A DNA stretch of 64,000 nucleotides from Tubulanus polymorphus (lineage: Eukaryota > Animalia > Nemertea), in NCBI RefSeq assembly GCF_964204645.1, contig NC_134031.1, positions 8,432,001-8,496,000 of the forward strand, read 5' to 3'. The translations under genes were made by a program, and so were the position numbers. The notes under the pieces are model-generated. The model was not told where the DNA came from. It made no database searches and was given only the letters and a program-made list of their open reading frames with translations. Positions 7,255 to 44,403 of the stretch are shown here, in pieces. Every line of letters begins with the position of its first letter. Position 1 is the first letter of the stretch.

Positions 7255-7272
7255 GCCCCCACTGGCCGACCT

Positions 7273-21466: not shown

Positions 21467-21991
21467 AGTAATAAGGATAATAGGCTTTCAGATCAAAGGT
21501 CGAACGGTTGAGCTCATTAAAAAACAAAACATTAGAAGTAATTTAAAACTATAATATATTTTCATAACCGTGTGCATTTTATATTATAACTAAATATTTA
21601 TTCTAAGATATCAATAATTTAAAAAGCATAATATATTCAAATAATAATATATAACAAATATATTCAAATAATAATAATTATTCTGTTATTCAACTGAAAT
21701 ACACACGGTTATGAAAATATATTATAGTTTCAAATTACTTTTAATATTTGTTATTAATGAACTCGACCATTCAACCTTTAACCTGAAAGCCTATTATCCC
21801 TATTACTCTTAAAATATTCATGTAGATGAATAACATTTAAATTGACAGATTATTCAATATAAAAGTATATATTTACAACATTATTTCAATATTCATATTT
21901 GTGTTAGTTAGATGTTTAAACATTAAAAGTGTTAGTAAAGTGTGATTGAAATAATGCATGATATAAATCATTGAACTTCTAAAATCAATTT
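21467..21991 (+). repeat. Polinton left TIR
   Basis: Reverse complement of ~38765-39289 with scattered substitutions. Confidence 0.93.
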
Positions 21992-22013
21992 TAATAAAAA
22001 ATTTAGTATTAAA

Positions 22014-25000
22014 ATGGAAGCAAATAAGTACTACTGCCCAACATGTAATATCAATATAGATAAATCCCAAAAAGCAAGACACAATAAAACTAAAACACAT
22101 TTAGAGAATAAATTGAAACTAGAATATAAAGATGATATATTAGAAACTAAATTAGATGAATTAAAGAATGAAAAAAAAATATATAAATGTGATACATGTA
22201 ATCAATCATTCAGTGATAAAAGATATTATAATGAACATTTAAAATCTAAAAGTCATATTAGAAATAAGAATAATGATATTTTAGGTGAAGATTATTTTGA
22301 TAAAGATAATGATAAGAAACAGAAGACAATTAAAAGCATAAAAAATAAATTAAACAATAAAAGACCATACATGGAAGATGTAAGAAATTATATTAATTCA
22401 TTAGATAATAAAAAAGATATAGAGATAACCGAAGCATTTAAAAGTGATATTGGCCCAGCAGCTATCGAGTTTAAATTTCATAAAGGAAAAACATTAGAAG
22501 AAAATAAAAAACATTTAGAAAATATGAAAGAAATAATAAAAATAATTACTGATGTTGAATATCCTAAAATAAGTATATCAGTTAAAGTAAAGTTTATAAA
22601 ATCTGAAGATAAACCAATATATAATATAAATTCTCATTCACAACATATTATATATAAACAACATATAGATGATAAATTAGATAAATGTTATAATGAAGTA
22701 AAAACTAAAATAGAAGAGAAATATTTTGAAGGATCTGGTTTAATATTTGATGAAATAATATTTATGACTTTACATGTTTATAACACAAAATATAATAAGT
22801 TAACTAAATCAAAACCAATTGATGAAAATAATGTATCATATTATAAAGAACCGGATATTGAAGCATCGAGTTATATTAAACTACCATTTAAAACTAATGC
22901 TGTTATGAATGTACAAAATTTTGATGATAAATGTTTTCTATGGGCTATAATAAGTTGTTTACATCCTGCAACTTATAATATTTGTAGATTAACTCATTAT
23001 AAACCATTTGAAAATAATTATAAGATAGATAAGTATCCTGTTAGAATTAAAAACGTCCCAAAGATAGAAAGAGATAATAATTTAAGAATAAATGTATTTG
23101 ATTTAATCAAATTACCAAATACAAAAGGTAACAACATAAAACATTATACATAAGAACCTTTATATCTATCAAAAGATTATGATTCGAATGATGTTATAGA
23201 TATATTATATTATGAAAACCATTATATGTGGATTAAACAAATTGATTTATTCTTTAGAACAGAAAAAGATCACCATAATAAAATATATCTATGTAGAAAA
23301 TGTTTACATAGATTCAGTAATGAAAGTAGATTATTAAATCATAAACAATTATGTGAAAATCATGATTATTGTAAATTAGTTTTACCAAATGAAAAGGATA
23401 AAATATTAGAATTCAAAAAATATGATTACAAAAATAAAGTTCCATTTGTAATATATGGAGATTTTGAATCATTAAATAAAGAATTAACTGATCAAGATAG
23501 AAAAGAAATTTATTATAAAAGAAAGAAATTAAATTCTAATGAAAATGATTTTTCAGATGAACCACCAAAAACAAATACTATTAAAAAGATTCATCAATCA
23601 GCTGCAGCTTTCGGGTTATATATTAAATCTGATTATCCAGAACTAATTGAAAGTGAATATTATAATTACAGAAATGAAAATGTTATCAATCATTTTTGTG
23701 ACTTATTAATTGAATATGAAATAAGATTTAGTAAATTATTGAATACAAATATAGAAATTATAATGACAGAAGAAGATAAAGAAGAATTTGCGTTTGCAGA
23801 TAAATGTTATTATTGTGAAAAGATATTTAATTATAAAGATAAAAAAGTAAGAGACCATGATCATTTGAACGGAAAGTTTAGAGGCGCTGCACATGAGAAT
23901 TGTAACTTACAAGCTAAGAAAATTAATTTTGTTCCAGTTATATTTCATAATCTATCAGGATATGATGCACATTTATTCATCAAACAGTTATGTCATAAAA
24001 TAGAAGAAATCAATAATGAAATAGAAATATTAAATTCAAATAGATCAAAAGATAAAATACCAACTTATAAATTTAGAATGTTAGCTAAAACATGTGAGAA
24101 TTATATATCATTCCAATTTGGTTGCCTAAGATTTATAGATTCATATAGATTTTTAAATAGTTTATTAGATAACTTATCAAAATCATTAGTTGATGATGAA
24201 TTAAAAATATTAAAACAACACTACCCAAATAATGATGATTTTAAATTAATGAGATATAAAGGAGCAATTCCATATTCTTTCTATAAAAATCATAATGATT
24301 TCAATATAACTGAATTATTGAAAGAACAATTCTATGATGAATTAAAAAATGAATATGTTAAAGATGAAGTCTATAATAGAACATTGAATATTTGGAATCA
24401 TTTCAAAATAGAAAATCATGGGCAATTAGTAGATTTATATTTAAAATCAGATGTATTATTATTAACCGATATATTCGAAAGGTTTAGAGATGTAAACCTA
24501 AAATATTTCAATATTGATCCTTGTCATTGTTATTCTAGTCCAGGATTAACATGGGATTGTGGATTAAAATTTACAGATATAAAAATGGATTTGTTAACAA
24601 ATATAGATCAATTACTATTATTTGAAAAATCTATAAGAGGAGGAGTTTCAGGTGTATTAGGTGATAGATATTTCAATGTAAATGATAACCCTGGATATAA
24701 GTTATTATATATAGATGCAAATAATCTATATGGTTGGGCAATGATGGAACCACAACCTTATGGAGTATTTGGAATAAGTGAAGTTTTACAGAATGAAAAT
24801 AATGATAAATTTGATTGGAAGAAAAGAATTCTAGATATTGCAGATGATTCAGATACTGGTTACTTCTTTGTTGTAGATTTAGAATATCCTGAACATATTA
24901 AATTAAAATCTAGAAATCTAGCTTACTGTCCCGAACATAAAACTGTAACTCATGAAGAATTATCAAATTATCAAAAAAGAATTAAACCCGAAAATCATAT

Positions 25001-26045
25001 TCATACAGAAAAGTTAATGGTAACTCAAGAAGATAAATATAATTATGTAGTACATTATAGAATGTTAAAGTTTTATCTAAAACAAGGAATGATTCTAAAA
25101 AAAGTACATAGATATATTTCATTCAGTCAATCTAAGTGGTTAGAAAAATATATAGATTTTAACACCAAACAGAGAACTAAAGCTAAAACTGATTTCGAGA
25201 AAGATTTCTTCAAGTTAATGAATAATGCATTCTATGGTAAGACTTGTGAAAATATTAGAAATAGAAATGATATTGAGTTAGTTAGTAATGGTAAAAGAAT
25301 TAGACATTTACAAACATATCCTAAGTTCATTGGTAACAGAATATTTGATGAAAATTTAGCCGCAGTTAAGATGAGAACATCATTGAAATTTAATAAACCA
25401 ATCTATGTTGGCGCTTCAGTTTTAGAAATATCAAAATTACTAATGTATGAATTCTATTATAATGTATTACAACCACTTTTTGGAGAAAAACATATAGAAA
25501 TACTATATTTTGATACAGATTCTTACATATTAAAGATAAAAACTGATAACATAACTGATGATTTAAAAACATTAAAACATCATTTTGATTTTAGTAATTA
25601 TCCTAAAGATCATGAATTGTTTAGCAATGATAATAAAAAAGTTCCAGGGAAGTTTAAGGATGAATTAGGTGGTGAAGAAATGATAGAGTTCATAGGTATT
25701 AGATCTAAAATGTATTCATATAAAACTAAAGAACATGAAGCTAAAAAGTTAAAAGGAATAACCAAAAGTGTAGTAGAAAAGAATATTCATTTCAAAGATT
25801 ACATCAATTGTATATTCAATGAAGAAGTTAGAAAACATAAGATGAGATGTTTAAGATCTGAAGATCATGAAATGTTTATTGAAGAAATTGAAAAGATAAG
25901 TCTAAACCCATTTGATGATAAAAGATATATTTTAGATGATGGAATTCATACAGTTGCTTATGGTTGTAATTTCGATGAATACTTAAAATTTAAAAGAGAA
26001 GAAATAAAAGAGAACGAGATAATGAAAAGAATTCTAACGTGTTAA
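22014..26045 (+). pseudogene. Protein-primed family B DNA polymerase with one in-frame stop at 23151-23153
   Basis: Two N-terminal C2H2 fingers; DDKCFLWA...HYMWI (vOTU-like); YGDFES exonuclease; VRDHDHLNGKFRGAAHENCN (EndoVII-like insert); YIDANNLYGWAM, KLMNNAFYGK and YFDTDS. Confidence 0.95.
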
Positions 26046-26074
26046 TCAAATTTTAATAAAAATATGTTATTAAA

Positions 26075-26428
26075 ATGGAGAGTAAACAAACACACAGTGA
26101 GAACAACAAATTATTTCTAGATAGAATAAAAGATATCACAAATGTAAAATCTGTAGATTATAAATTCAAAAAGTTAACAGAATTAACAATCCATAAGAAA
26201 TATCTAATTACAAATATTGATACAGTTACTAATAACTATGGAGATAAATTAGTTATACACTTAGAATATGAAGGATTAAAAGGAAATACATATAAATTCA
26301 GAACATATTTACCAGATAGATTTCATAGATTATCAAGTGAAGATCTAGAAGAATTATGTTCTGGAGATTTCTATTTCGTATACAAAGGTAAGAATGAAAA
26401 AGGGCACCATGAAATAGATTTCGAATAA
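26075..26428 (+). CDS. Small Polinton protein downstream of pPolB, function unknown (possibly nucleic-acid binding)
   Basis: 117 aa intact; FKKLTEL...TNNYG...YLPDRF pattern; own start motif. Confidence 0.65.
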   Translation: MESKQTHSENNKLFLDRIKDITNVKSVDYKFKKLTELTIHKKYLITNIDTVTNNYGDKLVIHLEYEGLKGNTYKFRTYLPDRFHRLSSEDLEELCSGDFYFVYKGKNEKGHHEIDFE

Positions 26429-26445
26429 GAAAATATGTAAAATAA

Positions 26446-27203
26446 ATGGTAGAATTAAAAGAATACAGAATATTTGTTGATTCTAGAAGACTTACAGATT
26501 ATAAATCACATAATTTACTAGTACAATTAGATAGAGAATTTAAGAATTGTGTAGATTTAAAATTAGTTAATATAAGTTTATGTAATTCTTTTTATAATAT
26601 GTCGAATAAAACTATTGAACATAGAGCCTTTTTAATTTTTAATAAAAATAAAAATGGATGGGCCTATATATATTTAAAACCGGGGTTATATAATTTAGAT
26701 ACATTAGCACAAGAAATTAATAGAAAAGCCTGGCACAAGTCAGGTAATAATTCCGGGTTTAATATTAGATTTTTAAAAAGTGAGAGTACTGACAAAATAA
26801 AGATAAGGTTGTCTAATAGTGAAATACATGCATTTATGGTAAAAAACCTATAGCTAAACTGTTAGGAATTCCTCCAGATAAATCTTTTACAAATATTGAT
26901 GCTACACCAAACTTAATACCTTTTACACACATTTATATCTATTGCAATTTAATCGATCCTACAAAAACATTCGAAGCAACTAAAGATATAACTTGTAATT
27001 CTGGTTTACTAAACATTTTACCATTGAAGAATGTTAAAGAATTTGGAACGCAAATAAATTATAATTTAACAGAATGTGATTTCAAACCATGCATTCCTCG
27101 TTTTAATAATTTTAGATTAGAAATTAGAAATCACAATGGATACTTAATTGATTTAAATAATTTCCCTGTAATTTATGAATTAGTTATAAGATGTAGAGAG
27201 TAA
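26446..27203 (+). pseudogene. Minor capsid (penton) protein, frameshift near 26850
   Basis: L..ISLCNSFYN, LKPGLYNL, LAKLLGI, IYIYCNLI, LEIRNHNG.LIDLNNFPV.YEL. Confidence 0.8.
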
Positions 27204-27220
27204 TTTTTTTCACTATATAA

Positions 27221-27562
27221 ATGAATATAACTGTTGGACCGAGTATATGTTTTGGTTTTGATTTTAAACATGGTAAAGAAATGAGAATTAAACTAAATGA
27301 TGTAATTACTGATATAAAAAGTAAATCATTTAACAATGCATCAATGATTAATAAAGAAAAATATAATATAGAAAAAGTAATTGATTTAATTAAATCACCT
27401 TTAGAATATTATGAATTAAATGAAGATGGAATTATTGATGATATTAAAAACATATTAACCAAAATATATGATAATCATAAAAGTAGTAATGAAATAAATG
27501 TTGAATTAATCATAAATAAGTTAACTAAATATTTTGATGATAGTAATTTTTTTGATAAATAA
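27221..27562 (+). CDS. Polinton hypothetical protein (113 aa)
   Basis: Intact ORF with TAAATG start. Confidence 0.6.
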   Translation: MNITVGPSICFGFDFKHGKEMRIKLNDVITDIKSKSFNNASMINKEKYNIEKVIDLIKSPLEYYELNEDGIIDDIKNILTKIYDNHKSSNEINVELIINKLTKYFDDSNFFDK

Positions 27563-27784
27563 ATGAGTGATAATAAATGGAAAACAACTGGATTATATAA
27601 TGGAGCATTACTATCAGTTGGAACTGTTGGTTATTCAATGGTATTAAAAAAAGTATTTAAAATGGGAAGTGTTAATGTTGATAGATTTGATATAAATGAT
27701 ATTTTAAAATTAACATTAGCAGTTACTTTATCTAATTTAACTATTGATTATTTAGAAAAACAAAAATATATTCCTCCCATATAA
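27563..27784 (+). CDS. Small predicted membrane protein (73 aa)
   Basis: Two hydrophobic segments (GALLSVGTVGYSMVL and ILKLTLAVTLSNLTI). Confidence 0.65.
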   Translation: MSDNKWKTTGLYNGALLSVGTVGYSMVLKKVFKMGSVNVDRFDINDILKLTLAVTLSNLTIDYLEKQKYIPPI

Positions 27785-27808
27785 ATGCATAATTATTTTA
27801 CTAAATAA

Positions 27809-28231
27809 ATGGCTTCTGCAGTTATAACTATTATAGGATCAGCAATTGTTAACGCTTTAGCATTTACTGGTGGTGGTTATTTATTTAAACATATTGATAA
27901 AAATGGTTCATTAACAGAACAAAAAAGACATAACTTAGCGTTAGAAAAATATAATAAAGCAGCAGAAGAATATAGAGAAAAGAGGCAAAACTATATGGAT
28001 TACATCAATAAAGAATTATATGATCAGAAGATTTCACATAGAGATTTTCAATCAGTTGATGATGCAATGAGTTTATATAACGCGGTAACCAATAAAGAAA
28101 AATTACATCTACATAAACCTACAATATCAAATTATTATACCCCAAGTAAAGAACAGAAGAAATATGAAATAATATGGATTTTAGGCGGAACAGTTATTGT
28201 TATATTTGTAGTATATAAATTTACTAATTAG
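27809..28231 (+). CDS. Predicted membrane protein (140 aa)
   Basis: Hydrophobic Gly-rich N-terminus MASAVITIIGSAIVNALAFTGGGYLF, coiled coil, C-terminal TM IIWILGGTVIVIFVVY. Confidence 0.7.
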   Translation: MASAVITIIGSAIVNALAFTGGGYLFKHIDKNGSLTEQKRHNLALEKYNKAAEEYREKRQNYMDYINKELYDQKISHRDFQSVDDAMSLYNAVTNKEKLHLHKPTISNYYTPSKEQKKYEIIWILGGTVIVIFVVYKFTN

Positions 28232-28250
28232 TAATTTTTTTGCTAAATAA

Positions 28251-28662
28251 ATGGAAGATAAAGTTGATAATATTGACATTATTCCTCATGATATAAATAA
28301 AACTAAATTAAAAACATATTTAGAAAAACAAATATTAGAATTTGAAAGAATATTTAAAATCTAAAATTATATATTATTTGATTATAAGTGGTTCGATTAC
28401 AATTAGTTCCGTAATAACATTTCTAGCAATATTCAGTCCATTAACACCTTTAGCTATATCAATTGGTGTATTAGGATTAAGTTCAAGTGTTTTAACTGGT
28501 ATAAGTTCAAAATTAAATATAAAAAGTAATAAAGAAAAAATTAAAACTAATATAAAAGAAATTAATAAATTAAAGAATACACTAGATTATATCATAAGTT
28601 TAAATGGCCATATAACAGTTGAAGAACAAGATAAATTATTAAAAGAATTAATAAATTATTAA
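28251..28662 (+). pseudogene. Predicted two-TM membrane protein with coiled coil, frameshifted near 28345
   Basis: TAAATG start at 28251; hydrophobic IIYYLIISGSITISSVITFLAIF and LAISIGVLGL. Confidence 0.65.
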
Positions 28663-28678
28663 TTTTTTAGTTATATAA

Positions 28679-30004
28679 ATGGTAGATAGTTTTCCAAAAG
28701 CTTTCCAATATAATAAATCAATTAAATATAATATTCCAGCAATAGATTTTAATAAAGATATTACATATAGAAATGAAGTTTTAAATTCATTAATTGATTT
28801 ATATATTTATGTTACTGAAAGTAATCATTTTCATGTAAAGATGGAAAATATATTTCATGTGTATACAATTAATTTCAAAAATTTAAATGAGGCAAAACAA
28901 TGGTTATTAAAATCTAATATGAAGTATTGGCAGAACCAATTAAATTTTGCTGTTTATTGCGCAACAACAGGATGTGGAATTAGTTGGAATGATCATTTAA
29001 ACAAACCAAGTTTACCATTGATGTTATCACTTTTTAGATTTCATACTTATTTTCAAATAAAATTAATATTAGATGAATTAGAATGTCCTTTACCAGGTTC
29101 AAAATATTTTAAAGAATTGAATAATAATATTTATTTTTCTAAGTTTTATAAAATATGTAATGAATTTAATATTAATTCAAATAAAGATTTTAGAGCAAAA
29201 ATTGGAACAATGGGTGGATTAGGAATATTATATACTAAAGAATTTGGAAAAATAATGACAAATTCAGATATAAGAACACTAAATTGGAATGAATTACCAA
29301 AATATTATAATAATATACAACAACAAAACAATATTGGTTGGGTTAATTTCATTTTAGAAAATAGTGAAGGTTTTACTAAAGCTGGAATACAAAGAATAAA
29401 TCAATCTATTAGAACTTATTTGATATGTATTCTAGGTGCGCAAGTTGAAACAAGATCGCCAATAATTGGAAATGATAACACTTCATTCGATGCGCAGAAA
29501 CAATTCAAAGTATTTTTTGAAGATTCAATTCATAATGATAAAAATAGATCGATTCCGGAAAACATTGTAAGATATCAAAATTATTTAGATAAATCACATA
29601 TTAGATTAAATTATTGTATAGGCCCTAATCTATTTATTATTTCTAATGATTTAGTATTAAAGATGGGAAACATAATTGGTTATAATAATCTAATTAAAAC
29701 TGCAACAATAAATAATTCATTTGGATTAAATGATATAAATAAAAAGATTATTACTGCTCCAAAATTAATGGAAGGTGAAAAAAATAAAAAACACATTCAA
29801 TCAACTGAAACTAAAACTAATAATATTAAATTAAATAATGATTCTAAAATAAAATATTACAATACATCAGAAAATATTAGAACTGATAATATTCAACATG
29901 ATATAATTAAAACTGATCATGATAATAAATCCCATGAAAATACTAAATTAGCTTTAACTTGTATAGGAATTGTAATCGGAGGAATATTATATTTTAAATT
30001 TTAA
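28679..30004 (+). CDS. 441-aa Polinton protein with C-terminal membrane anchor
   Basis: Intact ORF; YWQNQLNFAVYCATTGCGIS motif; terminal LALTCIGIVIGGILYF. Confidence 0.75.
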   Translation: MVDSFPKAFQYNKSIKYNIPAIDFNKDITYRNEVLNSLIDLYIYVTESNHFHVKMENIFHVYTINFKNLNEAKQWLLKSNMKYWQNQLNFAVYCATTGCGISWNDHLNKPSLPLMLSLFRFHTYFQIKLILDELECPLPGSKYFKELNNNIYFSKFYKICNEFNINSNKDFRAKIGTMGGLGILYTKEFGKIMTNSDIRTLNWNELPKYYNNIQQQNNIGWVNFILENSEGFTKAGIQRINQSIRTYLICILGAQVETRSPIIGNDNTSFDAQKQFKVFFEDSIHNDKNRSIPENIVRYQNYLDKSHIRLNYCIGPNLFIISNDLVLKMGNIIGYNNLIKTATINNSFGLNDINKKIITAPKLMEGEKNKKHIQSTETKTNNIKLNNDSKIKYYNTSENIRTDNIQHDIIKTDHDNKSHENTKLALTCIGIVIGGILYFKF

Positions 30005-30020
30005 TTTTTTTATTATATAA

Positions 30021-31679
30021 ATGGAAGAAGATATTCCAATGGATCCTTTAGATGAACCTGGTATAAGTGATGAACAACAACCTGATTTTAGTGAAACAAG
30101 TTTTAATGATGATAATAAAATAGAATATAATACTAATTTAGATGAAGATGATGATTATGATGATGATGATTCCGAATTACGTGAAAAAATTATATAAATA
30201 TTTTAAAGTTCCTGAAAGTGGTAGAATTTCAACTAGAACAGAAAGAAAAGAATTTATGAAACTATTAGTAGAACAACAAGAAAAATATCCTGATAAACCT
30301 ATGGAATTATATAAAATGAAATCTAGAGTAACAGATACAATTGTTAACGAATTATTACCAAAAGTTGTAATACGTGAAATTGATACAGAAGATGTTGTAG
30401 AACAAATTTTTAAAGATGACCCATATTTCACGAATAATTTAGAATTTAAAAATGATTCATGGTATTATAATCTTGAATTAAATAGGAATACTGTATCAAT
30501 TCAATTATCTAGGATGGGTCAAGAAAATATTTTTGAACCTGGAATGCGAGCATTATCTACAATTGAAGGTTCAAAAGGTGGTAGAGAATTTCTCAGAATT
30601 ATATGGAATGCACTTGATAGAATAAATGAAGAAGAACCAATTCATAATATTGATATAAACAAATATTCACCATTTAAAATTCCAAATCCAAATCCTACTG
30701 ATGAAGATTTTGTAAATCGATTAGATAAATTAAGATCTTCAACACCCGAAACATCGAGAAGAGATATTCAACAAATTGATAATGATTCAAGTCAACTACA
30801 ATTAACATTAGAAAAACAAATTGATAGATTAAGTGATTCAGAAGAAGAGATGAATAGTACTGGAATAAATCGAATACAATCTATACTAAAAAAGGATTTC
30901 TTAAATTAGCTGATGAAGAATTAGAAGCATTTCCTGAACAAACACGTAGAGAAATTAAAGGTATTCAAGAATCAGCTGATGTAAATGCTAATATTAATAT
31001 GAGATTTTCTAAAATAGCCATGTTAGAAAAAGAATTAGCTATTGCAAATGAAAAATTAGAACAATTAGAATTAAATAGAGATCTTAATGTAATTTATGAA
31101 CCTGATTATGAAAGCAGAAAGTTAGCTTAAGTAAAAGAAATAGATGATTTGAAATATAACAAAGAATTACAGGAAAAAGAAAGAGATATATTATTAAAAT
31201 CATATGATCTTAATCATATTAAAAGATTAAAAGATGTTTTTAAAGATTTGTTGATAAAACCAAATTCTGACATATCATTAAAAGATAGAATAAAATTATT
31301 ATTTAAACTAGAAGGAATAACAATTCTTTCAATTCTAACAGCTGTAACTATGGTATTTACAACAATTGGTTTAGCAATATCAAATGCTTTGAAATCTACT
31401 CCTACTCCTACTCCCAATAAACCGGATAAACCCCCGAATGATAATAATTCTATACAAGATAAAGTTAAGGATGGTTTAAAGAAATTAGCAAAATATTTAT
31501 GGGAACTATCTAAAAAATCTGCTGCAGCATTGCCAGGAATTATTGCATCAATTGTTGGTTTTATATTGAAATCTGCAGGAAACATTATTAACTTTGCTGC
31601 TGAACATATTATTTTATTTTTAATTACAGTTGTAAGTGCAATTATTTTTGGGTTAGTTAACATGATAAAAAATAAATAA
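30021..31679 (+). pseudogene. Large acidic/coiled-coil protein with C-terminal TM segments, with frameshifts and stops
   Basis: TAAATG start at 30021; contiguous ORF pieces; GITILSILTAVTMVFTTIGLAI, ALPGIIASIVGFIL and IILFLITVVSAIIFGLV. Confidence 0.7.
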
Positions 31680-31699
31680 TTAATATTTTTGTTAAATAA

Positions 31700-32936
31700 A
31701 TGAGTGGGAGTTATATCAATCCTTCTAAGAATCATAGAATATCTAATGCTATTAAAGCAAATAGATCACATCATATAATTACTCATAACCCTTCTAATAT
31801 TAATCCCGATGAAACTTTATATGTTAGAATCCCTCGATTAACACAAAATACTTTTTATGTTCCAAATAGTATTTATTTATCAGCCGATATAAAAGTAATC
31901 GGTAATAATAATAATTATGCTGTTGATAATGTTGGAAGATATTTGATTAAAAAATTAACTATAAAGATTGGTCCAGAAACAGTTTTCTCATTAGATGATT
32001 ATAATTTATTTATGCATTATGAAGATTTATGATTAACTAAAGAAAATAGAAATAATATGATATTTCAAGGCATCCAATCAGAAAACCAAAATAAATTAAG
32101 ATCTGAAGCCAATAATGCAGTAGTAACTAATGCTGTAGATAATTTGATAAAAAAGATTCATGGAAGCAAATATAAAATTCCATTAGACTTTGAATTGATA
32201 AATAATAATGCACCTTTATATAAATACGCAATTCAAGAAGATGTTATATTCGAAATAACATTTGCTCCTGTAAATGAAATTGTATTATCTAGCGTTGTTA
32301 AAGATATGAGTTATAAATTATCGAATATATGTTTAGAATATGATACAGTAACTGATGAAAATATTTCAAGTATAATTCAAACTCAATACAATCAAGGATT
32401 TTCATTATTATATGATTATATTGATAAATTTAAAACTGTAACTATTAATACAAATGATGAAATTATTAATGAGAATATTAACTTCCCAAGAAGATCTATT
32501 AAAGGTATATTAATATTTTTTACCATTGCAACATATTCTAATGGCGCAATAAATGTTGATAATTATTATAATCCCGAAATAACAAAAGTAGAAATAACTA
32601 TCGAAGGAATAGCAAATAAAATATTTTGTCAAGGAATGAGAATGATTGATCAATGGCCAGAAATTAGAAAACATTTTATGAATGAAAAAGTAAAATCATA
32701 ATATTAATCAAATTGATTATTATACTGGTAATAAATACGCATTATGGTTAGATTTTAGAACAACAGAGGATAATTCATTACATGGTTCTGGGAAAAAATT
32801 ACAAAACACTAAAGATGGAATACAATTATTCATGACAAAGAAAAAAGGAAGCCTAAATTTCAAAATGCATATTTATATTATATCTGACGCGCAATTAAAT
32901 ATTGTAAATTCACAATTAGATAGTGTTATGTATTAA
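31700..32936 (+). pseudogene. Major capsid protein (double jelly-roll, hexon-like), stop at 32030 and frameshift near 32699
   Basis: THNPSNINP..LYVRIP, YKIPLDF, YKLSNICLEYD, RSIKGIL, YYNPEITKVEITIEG and YALWLDFRT..DNSLHGSG; about 410 codons. Confidence 0.8.
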
Positions 32937-32968
32937 AATTTTAACTTTAATAAAAATATATATAATAA

Positions 32969-33901
32969 ATGGAAGGAGGTAAAGTATATAAACATATTCC
33001 ATACATCGATACACATGAAAATAATGATGGTTTATATTATGTAATACCTTGTAATATAGCTTTGATATTTGATCCTATTTTCAAAATTTATAAAACTAAA
33101 CTAATAGAAATCGATAATAATAAAAGTGGTGTTGTTGATAATTTAAGTAATGTAATTGATAATAATGTAATACCTTCTACTTCTAATAATGTAATACCTA
33201 CTACATCTAATAATGTAATACCTTCTACATCTAATAATGTAATACCTACTACATTTAATAATGTAATACCTTCTACATCTAATAATGTAATACCTTCTAC
33301 ATATAATAATGCAATAATATTAAATGTTAGTGAAAATAGAAATTATTGTGATTATTGTAAAGGTGAATTTTCAAACGCTCCATCAAATTGGAATAATCAT
33401 ATGAATACAAATTCACATATTATTAATGTTATAGAACGTGTTGGTTTAAAAGAATTTATAGAACACCCATTTAATTATGTTACAAAGTTTGTTTCAAATA
33501 AAAAAGTAGATGGTAAAGATTTATATAAAGATTTATTAGGTGAATTTTTATCTAAGGAACCTAGTAATGATGAATTAGATTTAACTGCTGCTAAGAAAAT
33601 ACTAGAATCAAGCATTGTAAATACAATATTAAGGTCTAACACTAAGAAAGATGATAATGAAAATGGTGCCATACGGCACCCACATGGTGATATAGTTACA
33701 GGAAAGCGCATTGATAAAGATTCTATGAAACTTAAATCAGAAAATAAAGATATAAATGAGATGACTAATAAGTATATCAATAAACCAATTATTTATGAAG
33801 ATACGGTAGAGCATTTGAATACATTGATGGGGTATGATGATGAATTGGAGAGTGATGATGAAAGTGATTCAGAAAGTAATTATATAACACTCAAAAAGTA
33901 A
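32969..33901 (+). CDS. Polinton hypothetical protein with NNVIPSTS repeats, a C2H2-like finger and acidic tail
   Basis: Intact 310 aa; six 24-bp repeats at 33160-33310; CDYC...H...H. Confidence 0.7.
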   Translation: MEGGKVYKHIPYIDTHENNDGLYYVIPCNIALIFDPIFKIYKTKLIEIDNNKSGVVDNLSNVIDNNVIPSTSNNVIPTTSNNVIPSTSNNVIPTTFNNVIPSTSNNVIPSTYNNAIILNVSENRNYCDYCKGEFSNAPSNWNNHMNTNSHIINVIERVGLKEFIEHPFNYVTKFVSNKKVDGKDLYKDLLGEFLSKEPSNDELDLTAAKKILESSIVNTILRSNTKKDDNENGAIRHPHGDIVTGKRIDKDSMKLKSENKDINEMTNKYINKPIIYEDTVEHLNTLMGYDDELESDDESDSESNYITLKK

Positions 33902-33960
33902 TAAAGGTTGAAAATTGTATAAAATAATAGTAAATAAAAAAGGGGGTTTTAAGTATTAAG

Positions 33961-34267
33961 GTATCTAACACATATCTAATACGTATCTAATACGTATTCA
34001 ATACATATCTAATACGTATTTAATACATATTTAATACATATCTAATACATATTATTTGAAAATACCTTAAATTATATTTCTTTTTTAAATTTATATTATA
34101 AACCTCAGTAATAATAAATAACCTTTATTATTTTCAAACTTATTCATATATTAGTTGAAAAAATAAAAATAAATTGGTTGAAAATTATATGAATAATATT
34201 TATTTTAAAAATGGGGTTTTAAGCATTAATGTATTTAATACGTATCTAATACGTATTTAATACGTAT
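33961..34267. repeat. Two arrays of 11-bp palindromic repeats (GTATTTAATAC-type) at the convergent gene junction
   Basis: About 8 units at 33961-34050 and about 3 units at 34231-34263. Confidence 0.75.
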
Positions 34268-34290
34268 TAGATAGATAGATATATAAATAG

Positions 34291-34882
34291 TTATTTTATA
34301 AATTTATATTCATAGGGAAATTGTAATCTCAGTAATAATTTTGAACCTTTATTATTCTTTAATTTATTCATATATTCATCATGTAATTCAGTAGGTATAA
34401 TTTGATTTTCTTCCAATGATTGTTGCATAGATTTTCTATCTTTGTTATAAAATAAAACTAGAAATCTTATATTCTCCCTAAAGTCTTTAACAATTGAATT
34501 ATATTTTTGATTTAAAACCCATGTTGTTATCCCGAAATGTCTCCCAGAGAAAGCCAGATAACATAACTCACTTTCTCTAACTTTTGAATCATGTAAATTT
34601 GCGCAATCATCTACAATGAATAATGTATTTGATCCTTTATAAGTATCAATTGATAAGTATCTATTTTAATACAATTATCTAAATTTTCTTTTACTGTTTT
34701 AGGATTTAATATAATAAACTTTTTTATCTTAACTATATCTCTATTATATGTTTTATTCATTTCATAAGTAGGGCAGAATAATATTATATTATCAAAATGA
34801 TTCTTATAAATAGTTTCTAACAAGTCTAATATGAAATTATTAACATATTATGCGGTTCAAATATAAATAAATCGTTATTCAT
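34291..34882 (-). pseudogene. FtsK/A32-like packaging ATPase, Walker A missing, frameshifted
   Basis: IILFCPT, TLFIVDDC (Walker B), FSGRHFGITTWVLNQKY and FREN. Confidence 0.85.
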
Positions 34883-35970
34883 TTAATTTTTTTAATTTTA
34901 CTAGATAAAATCCATTCATTAAATTTATCATCGTATTCTTTATATTTCACCAAAGAATACTTTTTTCCTTTAAGAGTTTTTGTTTTCAATACTTTTTCTA
35001 TTTTGTATTCTATTTCATCTGGATTTGGTACAAGTGATAATTCTTGTTCATAGAAATAACCTAATATTTCTTCGTCTTTTATATCTTCTTATTTATAAAC
35101 AAATGGTTTAGTTAATATTATCTTTTTAATCTTGAATATTTCTTCGGTAAAATTAGGGGTATAACCTTTATAAAATGTTTTTCTATATTTAGATATTCTT
35201 ACGTGTTGTCCTATTTTAAATTTAGGTTCTCCGAAATCATGTGTAACAAATGCGCCATATAAATTATTCCAAACTATTTCTGAATTATCTTCTTTTCTAG
35301 CTTGTATAGGTTTCATATTTATAGAACTATGTTTAGAATTATTATAACCTTTCACTAAATCATCTAACACATCGATATATTTATATGATTCATTAGCAGT
35401 GAAATATTTCCACATTCAGCTAGTTTTCAATGTTTTATTAAATCTTTCTATAATAGATGCTTTTTTATCTGAATGTGTTGAAAAATATTCTACATCGTTA
35501 TCAGATGATAGTTTTTTAAAATGTTTGTTATAAAATTCCTTACCTTCATCAAATTGTATCTTATCTGGAATAGCTTCTTTAAATATAGATTTAAAAGCAT
35601 TTGTAACTTCTATACCAGTTTTATTTTTGACTGGAATTGACCATGCGTATCTACTGAATATGTCTATAACATTTAATATCCAGAAATATCCTTTGTTGTA
35701 TTCTTCTAAGTTCTTCATGTCAATTAAATCTGCTTGCCATTGTTGATCGATATATGAAACCATAACTTTTCTTGTTAAATAAGTTTTATCCATTTTCTTG
35801 TGGATTTGATATGTTGGTTGATTTTGTAACCATGATTTTAATTCACTATATTTTATATTACCATTTTCCTTATCAGATTTAATTTCATTCCATAATTCTG
35901 AAACGCTAGAATATGATACTTCACTTTCTGGGTTATAATATAAATCTCTTAAATATTGTTCTTTTTTCAT
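34879..35970 (-). pseudogene. Retroviral-like (rve) integrase with C-terminal chromodomain; frameshift near 35416 and stop at 35089
   Basis: YYNP, QWQADLIDM, IDIFSRYAW, QFDEGKEF, KASIIERFNKTLK, KGYTPNFTEEIF and YSLVKYKEYDDKFNEW. Confidence 0.93.
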
Positions 35971-35976
35971 CTTATT

Positions 35977-36336
35977 TTAATCCATTAATAATAATCTTGG
36001 TTTATTTTCAATGACTTTATCATTTGATTTATTTTCTGGTATAATAGGTTTATTGTCATTGGAATCATCTTTATCATTAGATTTGAATTTTGATTTATAT
36101 ATTACACCGGATAATATAATAACGGTTACTAATCCAATTGTAATATATAATTTATAATTACTTCCAGCATTAGAAGAATCAGATGGATTATTATTCGAAT
36201 CAATATCAGGTGATTCATTTATATCAGTTAATTTCTTTTTCTTAGCTTTTTTTAATTCTGAAGATCTTTTACCTAATTTTCTTGCCCATTTAATTTGTTT
36301 CTCTGATCTAGCCTTTTTCTTAACTCCATCACTCAT
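35977..36336 (-). CDS. Basic protein with a single TM segment (119 aa)
   Basis: Lys/Arg-rich N-terminus; LYITIGLVTVIILSGVIY. Confidence 0.65.
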   Translation of the reverse strand: MSDGVKKKARSEKQIKWARKLGKRSSELKKAKKKKLTDINESPDIDSNNNPSDSSNAGSNYKLYITIGLVTVIILSGVIYKSKFKSNDKDDSNDNKPIIPENKSNDKVIENKPRLLLMD

Positions 36337-36931
36337 TTATTTTAGTTAATTTTTGTTCTGATTCATTTTCTGTTTCGACGTTTGGTTGTAGTACATCTGT
36401 TTCATTCTTACCTGATTTACATTCCATAGGCTTGATGTTCGAAAATGTTATGACACCAGTAGAAATTAATGTCATAACCGATCCTAATTGGAATGAAGCG
36501 TAACCAACCCATTTTTGTAATTCAGTCATAACTAAGTAGTCATTTTTCAAATCACTATATAATTTATTTTCATCATCAATTGGTATTAACTGGTTACATA
36601 ACTTAGAATAACATTTGACAATACCATCTGAAATAGTATCATTTATTCTAGCTAATCTAGCTTCTTCATAAATCTTAAAATATTTTATTACTTTATCTGG
36701 TTTCATAGCATCTAATTCTTGAAAAGTTATTATTTTTCCCAAGAAATCCTTAGTTTTTCCACCGGCAATCAATAGTTCTAGATGATGCGTACAATATAAG
36801 TAGTGTTCATAATCAATATTGTTATTAACTTGAATAGAATTAGAAACAACTGGATCCTTATTATCACTAATGCCCAAATCATCTAATGTTTTTTCAATAT
36901 CAATACTATTCTTACTTGATTTCTTTGACAT
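36329..36931 (-). CDS. Polinton hypothetical protein (200 aa)
   Basis: Intact ORF, TAAATG start, hydrophobic segment near the C-terminus. Confidence 0.7.
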   Translation of the reverse strand: MSKKSSKNSIDIEKTLDDLGISDNKDPVVSNSIQVNNNIDYEHYLYCTHHLELLIAGGKTKDFLGKIITFQELDAMKPDKVIKYFKIYEEARLARINDTISDGIVKCYSKLCNQLIPIDDENKLYSDLKNDYLVMTELQKWVGYASFQLGSVMTLISTGVITFSNIKPMECKSGKNETDVLQPNVETENESEQKLTKINE

Positions 36932-38086
36932 TTATATTAGAGAAATTTAATAAGAAAAATATTATAAGTATTCTTCAAATGATACTAGTATCTCTTTAGA
37001 TTAATACTAGCTTAGTTAAAGGTAAAGAATTTTAGTATTAGTTATTGTTTTTTTAGTATTTTTTATTTGTGATATAAAGTATTCTTTTGAAAAGAAAATA
37101 TTAAAAAAACAATAACTAATACTAGCTAGTTGAAGATATGTAATTTTAAATACTTTTTATTTAAGTTAGCATTTAGATTATCTCACTACTATTGTTTATC
37201 TATAGGAGCAGTAATTATAACTGTCCAGATAAGTCATTTCGGATTCTTGATAATAAATCCTAAAACTGAAAATAAATTCAAAAGAAACGACTGGTGGAAA
37301 TACTATTTCATAAACACACATATATTTTATTCTACAATCATTATCGATTTCCACATTCTAAGCCGCTCCTGAGAGGAGCGGTAAGTTATGCGTGGAATGC
37401 AGGAATCAATAAAGTACAATACAACATCTGTCACTGTGTGTCATTAACAACAGCTTAATGACGCAATTGAAATTCCGGCAAACGTAATGCATTGGAAGCC
37501 TATACAGTATGGCTAAACTGCTACAGTCTCATGAGTTGAAATATCCATTATTTCTGATTCCACATCAATCTATCTTCACTTTCTTGATTCAATGGTCTTC
37601 ATTTTGTTATCTAAAAGATAAATATCTAACGTAGAATAAAACTAACTTGAAGTTGTAGTTGTAAAATATTAATTACAGCACTTAAACATGACTATTTGTG
37701 GCGCATCTTACCAGGATAAGTTTTACATGTTTAACGTTTCCCAACGCCTTAATAACAACAAAAACAGTACTTACATTTATAACTGTAAACTCCTAAAATT
37801 GTGTTTATAGAGGGAATATCCTATACGTTCCTATGCTTATGTGCTGCGCGTTTATAACTGGCAGTTATTCACTAGCTAAACACTGTCTGTGCAACAGATG
37901 TTCCTTCCTTTGTAATATAATTGATTAATCCTTTTCAACTGAAATAGAACATTCGATCAATATTCAAATGAGGTGCGCCCCATTCAACTGAATATGAAAT
38001 ATGGCACAGATGTTTTTGTAAACAACCTAATATAATTACATACAGGCGGTTTGACATAGATCGAGAATAACCGGTTTTCTAAGCGT

Positions 38087-38742
38087 TTAACATTCAACGT
38101 ATTTTTCATTATGTGTTGAGTTCCATAATTCAACAAATGTCTTTGCTTTATCCAGTTGATCTAAATATAATTTCATATCTAGTTTGTTAGATTTAATTAT
38201 ATTTTCTTTTTTTCTAAAGGCCTTAAATTTCTCCAGTTCCAGATTAGCTTCTTATTATAATCATTACTCATGTCAAATTTAGAAATCGGCAACACGTGAT
38301 CAATATGAAAGTATTCACCATAATTATCTATATTCATTTTATCATCGAATTGATATATTATCCATGATATGAAAAATTCATCTGAACAACCCAATAGATT
38401 AGATAGTGTTTCTGAATGTGTTTCTTTGTTGAATAATTGTGTTAATCTAGATCTTAAGCATTGTTTCAATCTAAAATTAAGATCTGTTTGATATCTTTCT
38501 CTCATATATTCTGTCATATAATCATTGTAAGCTTCTCTATTATCTTCTCGATATTGTTTGGTATATAGTTTAGTACAAGTTTTACAGCAATATTGAAAAC
38601 CATCTTTGCTAATCTTACGCTTACTAAATTCTGTCAAAGCTAATTTATCTAATTCACATTTAGAACACTTCTTGTAGTATATATTTATAACACCACCAGT
38701 GTTATTTGTAATATTGATAGTTTGTGGTTGTTCTGATTCCAT
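38087..38742 (-). pseudogene. Zn-finger + HNH/endonuclease VII-like protein of giant-virus type, frameshift near 38197
   Basis: CSKC...DG....CKTC, LRSRL, LLGCS, NYGEYFHIDHVLPISKFD and WRNLRPL. Confidence 0.75.
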
Positions 38743-38764
38743 TTATTATACATATTTTTCTACT

Positions 38765-39289
38765 AAATTGATTTTAGAAGTTCAATGATTTATATCATGC
38801 ATTATTTCAATCACACTTTACTAACACTTTAAATGTTTAAACATCTAACTAACACAAATATGAATATTGAAATAATGTTGTAAATATATACTTTTATATT
38901 GAATAATCTGACAATTTAAATGTTATTCATTTACATGAATATTTTAAGAGTAATAGGGATAATAGGCTTTCAGGTTAAAGGTTGAATGGTCGAGTTCATT
39001 AATAACAAATATTAAAAGTAATTTAAAACTATAATATATTTTCATAACCGTGTGTATTTCAGTTGAATAATAGAATAATTATTATTATTTGAATATATTT
39101 GTTATATATTATTATTTGAATATATTATGCTTTTTAAATTATTGATATCTTAGAATAAATATTTAGTTATAATATAAAATACACACGGTTATGAAAATAT
39201 ATTATAGTTTTAAATTACTTTTAATGTTTTGTTTTTTAATGAGCTCGACCGTTCGACCTTTGATCTGAATGCCTATTATCCCTATTACT
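38765..39289 (-). repeat. Polinton right TIR
   Basis: Inverted copy of 21467-21991. Confidence 0.93.
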
Positions 39290-39295
39290 GTCAAC

Positions 39296-40180
39296 ATTCC
39301 TAGATACGAATGACATTACAAGTAAGCCCAGGCTGGCTTTAGATCGAAATATTCCATCATTAATCATATTTACACGCTTAAAACAATCGTAGAGCTGCAT
39401 CTTTGTCAGGGAAGAAGACTTTTTGCGCCTTTGTTGATTTTAAGAAAGCTTTCGACTCGATTTGTAGGGTAACGTTATGGCGAAAATTAATTGCTAACAG
39501 TGTTAATGGAAACTTTTTCAATGTGGTCAAAAATATGTATAATTCCATAAAATCATGTGTTAAATTTAATGGTTGCACGTCACAATACTTTGCAGCTGAT
39601 AGAGGCTTAAGGCAAAAATCTCTCATCTATCCTCTTTTCGTTATTCTTAAACGACACTGAATAATTTTTCATTGAACGCGGAAAACCGACATTGTCATTT
39701 ATTGAAAAACTAAATTTGAATCGTGACCAGGATATTGATACTTTACTGAATTTATTCATAATACTATACGCAGATGATACAGTTATTCTTGCTGAGGATG
39801 AGAAATCTCTTCAGCTACACTTAGATACCTTATTTGAATATTGTGCCGCTAATGGTCTCACTGTTATCTCAGAGAAAACTAAAGTACTAGTATTTGCGCG
39901 AAGTAAATCCCGAGTAAAAAACATTTCGAAATTTATGTTTGGTGATCAAGAGTTAGAGGTAGTTGAAGATTATGTTTATCTCGGAGTAAAATTTAAATGG
40001 TAAAATGGTAGAGTTTGGAATGGTAACTCTGCTAAGGCAAAAAAGTATCTTTACGATAAAGCTATGAGAGCTATGTTTTCGATCGTTCAAAAAGGCAGAC
40101 GTTTGAAATTGCCCATAGATGTTATGTTTAAATTATTTGATATGTGTGTTGCTCCAATAGCCATGTATGGGTGTGAGATC
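39296..40180 (+). pseudogene. LINE ORF2 RT continuation
   Basis: QAGFRSKYS, FCAFVDFKKAFDSI, LYADDT, KTKVLVF, YVYLGV and MYGCEI; resumes directly after the Polinton TSD. Confidence 0.9.
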
Positions 40181-42998: not shown

Positions 42999-44403
42999 AC
43001 TAGGGGTCCAGGGACACCATGCTCACTTGGGAAGTGGTTTCAAATGCTCAACTATCTAACAATTTAAATACATAACGCCCTCTAGTGACCATATACAAAA
43101 ACCAATGACCTTGAAACCCACCACAATCATAGAACATGTGAGCAGCTTTGATTTTGTAATCGATTGTGATAACAAAATATGCCTCGTTACCAATTTAATA
43201 TGGAAATACTAAGTTATTCTACTATTCAACGCCCTCTGGTGACCATATGCAAAACCCAATGACCTTAAAACTCACCACAATCGTAGTACATGTCATGAAA
43301 TACAATTTTGCAATTGATCATAGTAACAAAATATGCCTAGGTACCAATCTAATAAGGAAATACTAAGCCATTCTACTATTCAGCGCCCCCTGGTGACTAT
43401 ATGGAATAACTAATGTCCTTAAAAACTCACCACAATCATAGACGATGTCATGAACTACATCTTAACAATGGATCATGGTAACAAACTATGCCTAGGTACC
43501 AATCTAATAAGGAAAAACTAAGCTTTTCTACTATTCAACGCCCCCTGGTGACTATATGAAATAACTAATGTCCTTAAAAACTCACCACAATCATAGACGA
43601 TGTCATGAACTACAACTTTGCAATTGATCATGGTAACAAAATATGCCTTGGTACAAATATAATATAGCGATACTAAGTTATTGTATTATTCAACGCCCCC
43701 TGATGGCCACATACAAAAACCAATGACCTTGAAACTCACCAAAATCATAGAACACGTTATGGGCTACAACTTTCCAATTGAATATAGTAACACAATATGC
43801 TTAGGTATCAATTTAATGTGGAAAAACTTTTTCCCACCTACGAATGAGTACTGATGACACCAAGATGGCCGCCAATTGCGTCATAATTGTCTGATCAAAA
43901 AACCTGTCCCAGGTATAAAACATCCCTCTCTAAAGAATACCCATCAGCAATTGCAATGAGAAATGGCAAACCAGTAGGAAGCTACAGGACCTAGAATTCT
44001 GGCCAAAATTGACATTTTTGGGCACTAAAAAGGTCATAGGACGGCCATCTTGAGTCAGATCGACCCAATTTTCTTATGCTGATGGGCCTTTGGTAGATTC
44101 AAATATAAACGAAAGATCAAGGTAATTGATCAAAGCGTCTTCAAAATTTCCCGAAGAAAACTTCGAAAATGTGCTGATTATGGCAAACAACAATGGCTGC
44201 CAGTCGACCATCTTGAATCTGACAGGGCCAGTTTTTGGGCTGACGATATGTCTAGGGTAGATACATGTATAAACCAAATATCAAGACATTACCTTGAAGC
44301 GTCTTCAAAACTTCCCGAAATAACTGGATTCCGTCTATGGACGGACGGACGGACGAAAAGTGAACGCAAATAGCCCGCTGGGACTAAAGTCCCAAGTGGA
44401 CTG
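42999..44403 (+). mobile_element. HINE-A complete copy inserted in an A-run of the satellite
   Basis: About five ~154-bp repeats, (GGAC)n microsatellite at ~44339-44355, terminal hairpin GGGACT-AA-AGTCCC, no TSD. Confidence 0.8.

Follow-up and report, generated by a model that had tools for sequence, protein, structure and literature searches.

A Polinton of Tubulanus polymorphus with two classes of TAAATG start motifs: candidate promoters for a helper virus polymerase

Introduction

Maverick-Polintons and adintoviruses (Polintoviricetes; Starrett 2021, PMC8502044; Bellas and Sommaruga 2026, preprint 10.64898/2026.06.19.733378) are the described systems that the element analyzed here resembles in build: it resides in an animal genome, measures about 18 kb and combines a DNA polymerase B that is protein-primed (pPolB), an rve integrase, an A32 ATPase and a capsid gene with terminal inverted repeats (TIRs) and a 6-bp target-site duplication. 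It differs from them in that neither a protease nor PLA2 was detected, that its major capsid protein matches Capsid_N weakly and not PF21738, that its pPolB belongs to a separate deep clade, and that its genes start at TAAATG instead of Kozak-like contexts. It is debated if Polintons of animals live as autonomous viruses, as transposons or as parasites of larger viruses, and their virions have not yet been seen according to the 2026 preprint; an initiator motif gives a direct handle on this issue.

For mavirus/EMALEs and Gezel-14T (PgVV), small integrating or co-infecting DNA viruses without an RNA polymerase (none was detected in our element either), possession of the helper's promoter motif is an accepted sign of helper dependence. 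These systems have protist hosts, mimivirus-type helpers and a single motif class each (TCTA and AAAATTGA), and their helpers were identified by experiment. In animals, Polinton-related elements associated with entomopoxviruses (AHEV_PLV1/2, CBEV_PLV1, Ca_PLV1; Barth 2024, PMC11296320) have been proposed to parasitize poxviruses; by their description, they differ from our element in being found in occlusion bodies, in their size of about 12 kb and in encoding a tyrosine recombinase or none instead of an rve integrase. Poxvirus-associated Polinton-like viruses are already published, and in the literature searched we did not find the promoter signature: the words 'promoter', 'motif' and 'transcription' never occur in the main text of PMC11296320, while TAAATG appears twice in the repeat tables of its supplement.

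Passages of PMC5294985 place the T-rich core of vaccinia late promoters 5–7 bp upstream of TAAAT(G/A) and assign such promoters to membrane and morphogenesis genes. Intermediate promoters, as outlined in parts of PMC12917281, consist of an AT-rich core without consensus at −26 to −13, a 12-bp spacer and TAAA, the latter initiator being read directly by the vaccinia polymerase. The yeast linear virus-like elements pGKL are AT-rich as well and use a TAAAN initiator that gives rise to 5’ poly(A) leaders, but they are cytoplasmic and come with genes for an RNA polymerase and a capping enzyme of their own (PMC6211774).

Results

The window, i.e. the whole 64,000-nt stretch of DNA analyzed, harbors a Polinton (Table 1) with AGT...ACT ends and GTCAAC as its 6-bp target-site duplication, inserted into a LINE-type reverse transcriptase remnant (RVT_1 match at 39382–39657). 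All hallmarks of Maverick-Polintons listed above, from pPolB to the duplication, were found. An adenain-like cysteine protease, a group 1 trait, was detected neither in the 25 element frames scanned nor in 19 ORFs of same-capsid relatives. The outer 341 bp of the left TIR form an imperfect palindrome (arms 96% complementary; z = −16.9), and the A-core of the pPolB start sits at the inner end of this repeat.

Table 1. Features of the element, in coordinates of the window.
Feature	Position	Strand	Remarks
Polinton/Maverick element	21467..39289		17,823 bp, 24% GC (76% AT); complete but decayed
Left TIR	21467..22002	+	536 bp
pPolB	22014..26045	+	A-class start TAAAATG
OB-fold protein, predicted single-stranded DNA-binding protein (SSB)	26075..26428	+	A-class start TAAAATG
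Probable penton	26446..27203	+	A-class TAAATG; frameshifted near 26823–26853
113-aa protein	27221..27562	+	T-class TAAATG
73-aa weakly hydrophobic protein	27563..27784	+	T-class TAAATG
140-aa predicted membrane protein	27809..28231	+	T-class TAAATG; conserved in capsid clade (11 loci)
Predicted membrane protein, frameshifted	28251..28662	+	T-class TAAATG
441-aa conserved protein	28679..30004	+	T-class TAAATG; C-terminal hydrophobic helix
Large predicted membrane protein	30021..31679	+	T-class TAAATG; split over several frames
Major capsid protein	31700..32936	+	T-class TAAATG; one in-frame stop, one frameshift
310-aa protein	32969..33901	+	A-class TAAATG; 24-bp repeat tract, zinc-finger-like motif
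Non-coding, convergence of two gene arms	33950..34293		11-bp tandem repeats, imperfect palindrome
A32-like packaging ATPase, broken	34291..34882	-	Pox_A32 E = 8e-5; TAAATG, A-like class
rve integrase with chromodomain	34879..35970	-	TAAGATG start outside both classes; two in-frame stops
119-aa predicted membrane protein	35977..36336	-	A-like TAAATG inside the end of the upstream gene, retained in sister L030
200-aa conserved capsid-clade gene	36329..36931	-	TAAATG, unclassed here; T-class in sister L030
Zinc-binding, HNH-like protein, frameshifted	38087..38742	-	A-class TAAATG, kept in L030
Right TIR	38754..39289	-	Inner end holds A-core of 38742 start

The pPolB carries N-terminal zinc fingers and an Endonuclease_7-like domain, is interrupted by a single in-frame stop (23151–23153) and forms its own deep clade in the pPolB tree; 3556 of the 7980 homologues scored reached E ≤ 1e-20, several of them with PF03175. 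The 26075 product is predicted to be SSB-like, based on a structural model (pLDDT 84) with a Foldseek match to a phage SSB (E = 7e-5) and similarity to OB folds at Z 4–5.5. The gene at 26446 is probably the penton, a label that follows the earlier note and known motifs; Pfam, BLAST and pairwise searches gave no significant match. For the major capsid protein, a weak Capsid_N match (E = 0.005) but none to PF21738 was obtained, and intact homologues, 28–47% identical, occur in 6–7 loci. The HNH-like label derives from a sequence pattern and had no Pfam counterpart; in all, the element encodes two or three zinc-binding proteins of unassigned role. Its genome space is accounted for by the ORF layout; for the largest unassigned gene, 28679, the protein model (pTM 0.73) matched no fold in BFVD, PDB or VIA (best Z 3.6). 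Neither an RNA polymerase nor VLTF3 was detected by Pfam and further homology scans of the element's frames.

All 16 gene starts listed in the earlier note proved to be ATGs on the strands given there, 13 of them within TAAATG; the deviating forms TAAAATG (22014 and 26075) and TAAGATG (35970) were confirmed as well. It had also been remarked that the TAA is mostly not the stop of the preceding gene, and this holds true, with 27563 as the one exception among the 13. Elsewhere in the element, TAA precedes 47 of 738 other ATGs on both strands (6.4%), and 28 of 1445 ATGs in the host DNA of the window. The enrichment at gene starts has a binomial P of 1e-13, or 8e-12 with a harsher null derived from upstream base composition. 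Against AT-rich and Kozak backgrounds, a comparison of the kind that the earlier note had proposed, the motif stands out far above both: AT-rich control loci (n = 8, GC ≤ 27%) have TAAATG at 11/60 starts (Fisher P = 5e-6 versus the element), and at position −3, of 331 starts taken from other related loci, 63% have A and 18% have T, so that a T at −3 is anti-Kozak; the T-rich form described below occurs there 0 times. The motif is preserved within coding tails at 27563 and 36336, in the former case within the last codons of the 27221 gene. Two further readings were rejected: a trans-splice acceptor, as AG precedes the ATG at only 1/16 starts, and a baculovirus TAAG motif, which is present solely at the start of 35970.

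The bases upstream of the motif fall into two classes. A T-rich form had been claimed for the block 27221–31700; in its strict version it applies to five of the seven genes, the T-run being interrupted once at 27809 and at 31700. A looser rule, with a T-run of at least 4 ending 6–7 nt before TAAATG, captures 7/16 starts versus 2/47 non-start TAAATG (Fisher P = 5e-4), although this rule, like that for the A class, was formulated post hoc after inspection of the data. The seven T-class genes, encoding membrane and capsid proteins, are contiguous (permutation P = 0.001); four of them have a hydrophobic segment scoring at least 1.7 and one more is the capsid gene. Their spacer of 6–7 nt is fixed in length in 7/7 cases while its bases vary. 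The A-rich form fits all five genes for which it had been proposed (pPolB, 26075, penton, 32969 and HNH) and was additionally found at the ATPase and 36336, in total 7/16 starts versus 3/47 (P = 0.002), a count in which the A-cores of 22014 and 38742, lying in the two TIR copies, represent one sequence counted twice. Where measurable, the A-run ends 8–10 nt upstream. These findings support a rough correspondence of the two start classes with gene function, the exceptions being the penton (a virion gene) and 36336 (predicted membrane protein), which have A-class starts, and the integrase, whose start belongs to neither class. Across three T-class promoters, the family shows 54 variable sites in 661 bp; among the 40 of these 54 sites listed, none falls into the last 10 bases of the motifs, with about 1.8 expected, a difference that is not significant.

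The T class resembles vaccinia late promoters in that the TAAAT(G) initiator is fused to the ATG, in its spacing, which lies within the 5–7 bp range in all block genes, and in its association with membrane and capsid genes, as compared with the membrane and morphogenesis genes of vaccinia. The assignment of the A class to the intermediate type fared less well: TAAA is present, but the spacer is 8–10 nt and not 12 bp, and the core comparison discriminates little, since all upstream DNA in the element is AT-rich and the vaccinia intermediate core lacks a consensus. The designation 'poxvirus-type' is too narrow as well. Iridovirus-related giant-virus contigs (G003 and its capsid protein relatives L305–L310 and L371, a biased sample because picked via a motif match) have TAAATG at 41/62 starts versus a 2.8% background; G003 encodes Rpb2 and VLTF3 and uses TAAATG at 8/14 starts. 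These contigs share the extended ATAAATG (35/41 TAAATG starts; 12/13 in the element) but differ in that the T-form with 6–7 nt spacing occurs in 0/41, and thus no sampled virus has both classes. Scanning viral contigs for the T-form pattern yielded at least 120 single matches, 13 of them at ORF starts among those listed, which we regard as a lead only.

Extending the analysis to related Polintons, again as proposed earlier, revealed the motif to be lineage-specific. The sister locus L030 (80% identical) has TAAATG at 3/4 starts, keeps all three homologous TAAATG starts and shows the T-form at its 36931 orthologue, outside the T block; the six same-capsid relatives have TAAATG at 2/68 starts and 103 related loci at 6.5% of 899. 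Three distinct branches of the pPolB tree show TAAATG enrichment. A slight surplus of TAAA between −8 and −3 is general among related Polintons (15–29/331 per position versus about 5 further upstream). Among the same-capsid relatives, L032 has a gene for a Pox_VLTF3-like protein (E = 1.3e-16), of which no homologue was found in the other related loci searched. Alignment-based search retrieved no further locus of the same clade, and the phage collection gave no match.

Discussion

We consider it somewhat probable, at roughly 55%, that the two-class TAAATG starts are initiator-type promoters that a co-infecting large DNA virus, of poxvirus-like or iridovirus-related kind, reads with its polymerase, and that the element is a virophage-like endogenous virus. 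This reading is supported by the direct recognition of TAAA by the vaccinia polymerase, by the helper promoters shared by mavirus/EMALEs and Gezel-14T, and by the co-occurrence of Polinton-like viruses with entomopoxviruses; that no RNA polymerase was detected in the element fits helper dependence as well. The RNA polymerase of the helper nucleocytovirus would read the TAAATG promoters, with transcription presumably beginning in the run of A that immediately precedes the ATG, to give near-leaderless messages, possibly bearing 5’ poly(A) made by slippage. Less firmly, the A-rich promoters (pPolB, SSB-like, ATPase, zinc-binding genes and penton) may fire first and the T-tract promoters (membrane proteins and capsid) late. 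The element would replicate by its own pPolB and integrate by its own integrase, and when the helper is absent its copies would stay mostly silent and decay. Against this reading stands the difficulty that the polymerase would be cytoplasmic and the integrated copy nuclear; also, the T class being one contiguous block makes local copying of a single promoter possible. If correct, it would carry integrated virophages of the mavirus type over from protists to animals, and the motif would predict transcript starts, the form of 5’ ends, the type of virus to seek and which Polinton families respond to infection.

A far-reaching extension, which we put forward tentatively and hold to be rather doubtful, is that multiple copies of an endogenous virophage reside in an animal germ line, belonging to a Polinton lineage whose whole genome has been rewired to the intermediate-then-late promoter cascade of its poxvirus-like or iridovirus-related helper, waking only on infection, and which may act as an inherited antiviral defence; the same switch would have arisen separately in other Polintons (L003 and L127/L167). 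In that event, start-codon context would become a sequence test for helper dependence.

Some nucleocytoviruses without an RNA polymerase retain VLTF3. It is conceivable, albeit unlikely, that host RNA polymerase II reads these viral-type promoters, guided by a factor of the element or of a sister, for instance one like VLTF3, with no helper needed. Judging by the VLTF3-like protein of L032, late-type transcription is open to the clade by other means as well, and the zinc-binding proteins of unassigned role offer further candidates; moreover, coral Polinton genes are described in parts of PMC11131425 as expressed in ordinary coral RNA-seq, so that the host may transcribe such elements. However, L032 itself has TAAATG at only 1/10 starts, a VLTF3 homologue was found neither in the element in the window nor in the other related loci searched, and TATAWA occurs 25–120 nt upstream of only 6/16 starts at no fixed distance.

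We regard it as quite unlikely that the motif is a signal for translation or short leaders specific to this lineage, or that it stems from a single promoter copied during compaction, with the vaccinia likeness being convergent. The contiguity of the T class, the resemblance of A-class sequences to the inner TIR end, the general TAAA excess and the three separate tree branches would agree with such an origin, but T at −3 is disfavored among relatives, spacer length is fixed though spacer bases vary, the 36931 orthologue in the sister has the T-form outside the block, and the motif persists in coding sequence.

That the preceding gene's host poly(A) signal (AATAAA/ATTAAA), pressed against the next ATG, accounts for the motif appears highly improbable. 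AWTAAA does lie within −15 to +3 at 12/16 starts, and intergenic gaps are short; yet both TIR-adjoining first genes, which no gene precedes, have the motif, the hexamer at four starts is TATAAA, and a poly(A) signal would not have to keep a constant register with an ATG. Across related loci, TAAATG shows no higher frequency after co-oriented genes (26/288) than after divergent ones (9/72), and in L003 four of six TAAATG genes are divergent. AATAAA occurs 63 times in the coding sequence of the element versus 61.5 expected by chance. Neither AATAAA nor splice donors are depleted in its coding DNA, as might signify nuclear transcription, and with a median ratio of 1.0 over 64 relatives this test does not discriminate. 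Stop–start coupling or plain AT richness, despite the 76% AT and the TAA in frame before the ATG, is hardly credible and was rejected, as TAA is a real upstream stop in only 1/13 cases, TAG or TGA never takes its place, and the enrichment withstands both the AT-matched null (P = 8e-12) and the comparison with AT-rich relatives (11/60).

The right-hand genes of the element are spaced just 0–32 nt apart, which speaks for the helper-read promoters proposed above, and the repeat- and palindrome-bearing non-coding stretch in which the two gene arms converge may serve as a shared terminator.

TAAATG at Gene Starts and Its Two Upstream Forms

All 16 gene starts of the decayed Polinton (genes are named here by start-ATG coordinate) proved to be as the earlier note described them, 13 reading TAAATG. 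TAA precedes only 47 of the 738 other ATGs of the element (P = 1e-13), and the enrichment persisted against an AT-matched background (P = 8e-12). The exception at 26075 (TAAAATG in the window) is softened, by our reading, by TAAATG in about one third of the run X5 reads from other copies. At 27563 and 36336 the motif falls inside the coding region of the preceding gene, a sign of selection acting on the DNA itself.

Under rules drawn up post hoc, after inspection of the starts, a T-rich form was recovered at the seven contiguous starts from 27221 to 31700 (P = 0.001), with a run of at least four Ts that stops 6 or 7 nt short of TAAATG (2 of 47 non-start TAAATG in the element fit), and the A-rich form, AAAAT(A/T)N5-8, at seven others versus 3 of the 47, the A-cores of 22014 and 38742 being the two copies of the terminal inverted repeat (TIR); integrase and 36931 fit neither. 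T-class products comprise the capsid protein, four with a hydrophobic segment of at least 1.7, one weakly hydrophobic and one of unknown kind, while the A class holds pPolB, the ATPase, an SSB-like protein with an OB fold, two genes for zinc-binding products, the membrane-like 36336 and what is probably the penton. Upstream class matches gene function well, though not cleanly.

Proposed Transcription by a Helper Virus

The start motifs likely function as promoters. Most likely they would be initiators for a nucleocytovirus RNA polymerase brought by a co-infecting virus, transcription beginning in the A-run adjoining the ATG; no RNA polymerase or late transcription factor was detectable in the element. 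Dependence on such a helper is the best reading of the sequence likeness, and we put its probability at roughly 0.55. With less assurance, the DNA-handling genes may fire first and the membrane and capsid genes late. T-class spacing favours a poxvirus-like helper; an iridovirus-type one with a nuclear phase would have easier access to an integrated copy.

Alternatively, the promoters may be served by a self-supplied transcription factor. A same-capsid Polinton (L032) does encode, at 5447–6088, a late transcription factor resembling Pox_VLTF3 (E = 1.3e-16), but its starts are Kozak-like and lack the motif, and a VLTF3-like homologue was not detectable in the window. It seems very improbable that the motif is the poly(A) signal of the upstream gene: although 12 of the 16 starts contain AWTAAA, the motif is present at both first genes, which have no gene upstream, TAAATG is in relatives as common behind divergent (9/72) as behind co-oriented genes (26/288), and AATAAA occurs in coding DNA at chance level. 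Stop-start coupling (the TAA, as the earlier note held, is mostly not the upstream stop, coinciding with it at 27563 only), plain AT richness (rejected by the AT-matched null and by 11/60 starts in eight AT-rich loci), a splice acceptor (AG before the ATG at just 1/16 starts) and the baculovirus TAAG (at 35970 only) were dismissed.

As to helper dependence, helper-promoter sharing is established in mavirus/EMALEs (accessible text of PMC8547959) and Gezel-14T (likewise, 10.1101/2022.07.28.501842), and is restated in the available part of a Tetraselmis preprint. The accessible part of Barth 2024 (PMC11296320) ties Polinton-like viruses to entomopoxviruses and holds no promoter analysis; the word 'promoter' is absent from Starrett 2021, Bellas 2023, the coral polintovirus paper and the 2026 framework preprint. 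Among the papers listed from the open literature, no title or abstract described such a signature for Polintons or Mavericks, though bioRxiv supplements may hold motif analyses. A comparable initiator occurs in yeast linear elements, which supply a polymerase of their own (excerpted text of PMC6211774). The architecture is real, specific to a few lineages and apparently undescribed before.

Distribution among Relatives

Of 175 related loci fetched, 103 had three or more ORFs reaching 90 aa; in these, TAAATG stood at 58 of 899 starts (6.5%), a rate somewhat lowered by first-ATG ORF calls and some host or decayed frames. Only L003 (6/6), L127 (5/13) and L167 (5/14) exceeded the corrected threshold. 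Outside the enriched loci, the start context was A at -3 in 63% of 331 starts, with no T-form. The sister element L030 (80% pPolB identity) carries TAAATG at 3/4 starts; its pPolB is truncated by the contig end, so that the fourth start counted is merely an ATG within that gene. L030 keeps the A-form in the HNH-like and 36336 homologues and has the T-form in that of 36931. Six loci sharing the capsid module gave 2/68. In a pPolB tree (FastTree, 87 rows, rooted at the midpoint, its backbone weak), the window element and L030 fall in a well-supported separate clade and L003, L127 and L167 lie elsewhere, so that repeated gain of the motif is probable.

In L003 (IMGVR_UViG_3300020002_000020; unrelated pPolB branch, 38% GC), where the gain is probably independent, four of the six genes are divergently arranged. 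L127 and L167, PLA2-module Polintons, have long A-rich tracts upstream of starts. L030 is arranged differently from the window: downstream of pPolB, and on its strand, come homologues of the HNH-like gene, of 36931 and 36336 and of the integrase, start motifs kept. Short tandem repeats 3' of gene ends (L030, ~5010–5100) are candidate terminators.

Resemblance to Viral Promoters

Likeness to vaccinia holds in part. The T class fits late promoters, which have a T-containing core 5–7 bp from TAAAT(G/A) and lie on membrane and morphogenesis genes (PMC5294985, in part); the A class only loosely fits intermediate promoters, which combine a consensus-free AT-rich core with a 12-bp spacer and a TAAA that the polymerase itself reads (PMC12917281, in part). 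In salmon gill poxvirus, TAAATG is annotated on many conserved genes (accessible text of PMC4542343). The label poxvirus-type is nevertheless too narrow, as giant-virus contigs also use TAAATG. Three such records, entered through 13 T-form matches at ORF starts among the viral-contig matches listed, have it at 8/27, 4/20 and 8/14 starts (three of the last in paralogues); reached through a motif match, they show that TAAATG starts exist outside poxviruses, not their frequency.

The 8/14 record, the iridovirus-related contig G003, encodes Rpb2 and VLTF3. Its capsid most resembles solved capsids of iridovirus type in the PDB. Seven loci with capsids 62–90% identical to it have TAAATG at 41/62 starts versus a 2.8% background, with no T-form of 6–7-nt spacing among them; all non-redundant loci of the capsid search gave 72/196. 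Within the clade of G003, L305–L310 and L371, about two thirds of gene starts carry TAAATG, other similar-capsid relatives being mostly without. An AAAAT core is essential in an iridovirus delayed-early promoter, too.

The Element and Its Surroundings

Judged on defining genes and ends, the element is a Maverick-Polinton, with pPolB, an rve integrase that bears a chromodomain, an ATPase of the A32 type, a capsid protein and a dozen or so further genes; no protease was found in 25 element frames scanned. Its insertion split a LINE reverse-transcriptase remnant. The window copy has stops or frameshifts in pPolB, penton, 28251, 30021, MCP, ATPase, integrase and 38742. Same-species reads reveal a multi-copy family, mostly 90–99% alike, 941 reads crossing the right end into differing flanks, and the flanking LINE also in uninterrupted form. 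The intact Pao element in the window, of a kind not known outside animals, indicates an animal host. The non-coding stretch at ~37100–38090, where L030 has only ~300 bp, is probably a secondary insertion. Terminal palindromes are known from Halocafeteria virophages and one PLV, mostly without pPolB, whereas here they accompany it.

Features of the window
Feature	Position	Description
GC-rich region	3000–9500	~50% GC; several minus-strand ORFs, no Pfam match
154–155-bp repeat	11413–12016; 43074–43828	array
Polinton	21467–39289	17,823 bp, 24% GC; 536-bp TIRs; AGT...ACT ends; 6-bp target duplication GTCAAC
Imperfect palindrome	21467–21807; 38949–39289	outer 341 bp of each TIR, from element end; z = -16.9
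Conserved Polinton protein	28679–30004	441 aa; 352 homologues; confident structure model, no structural match in BFVD, PDB or VIA
11-bp tandem-repeat units	33950–34293	where gene arms converge; candidate terminators
Non-coding stretch	~37100–38090	~1 kb; GC slightly raised; thinly covered by runs X1 and X2
31-bp satellite	42704–48533; 56729–57612	array
Pao/BEL retrotransposon	50341–55764	intact 1807-aa polyprotein
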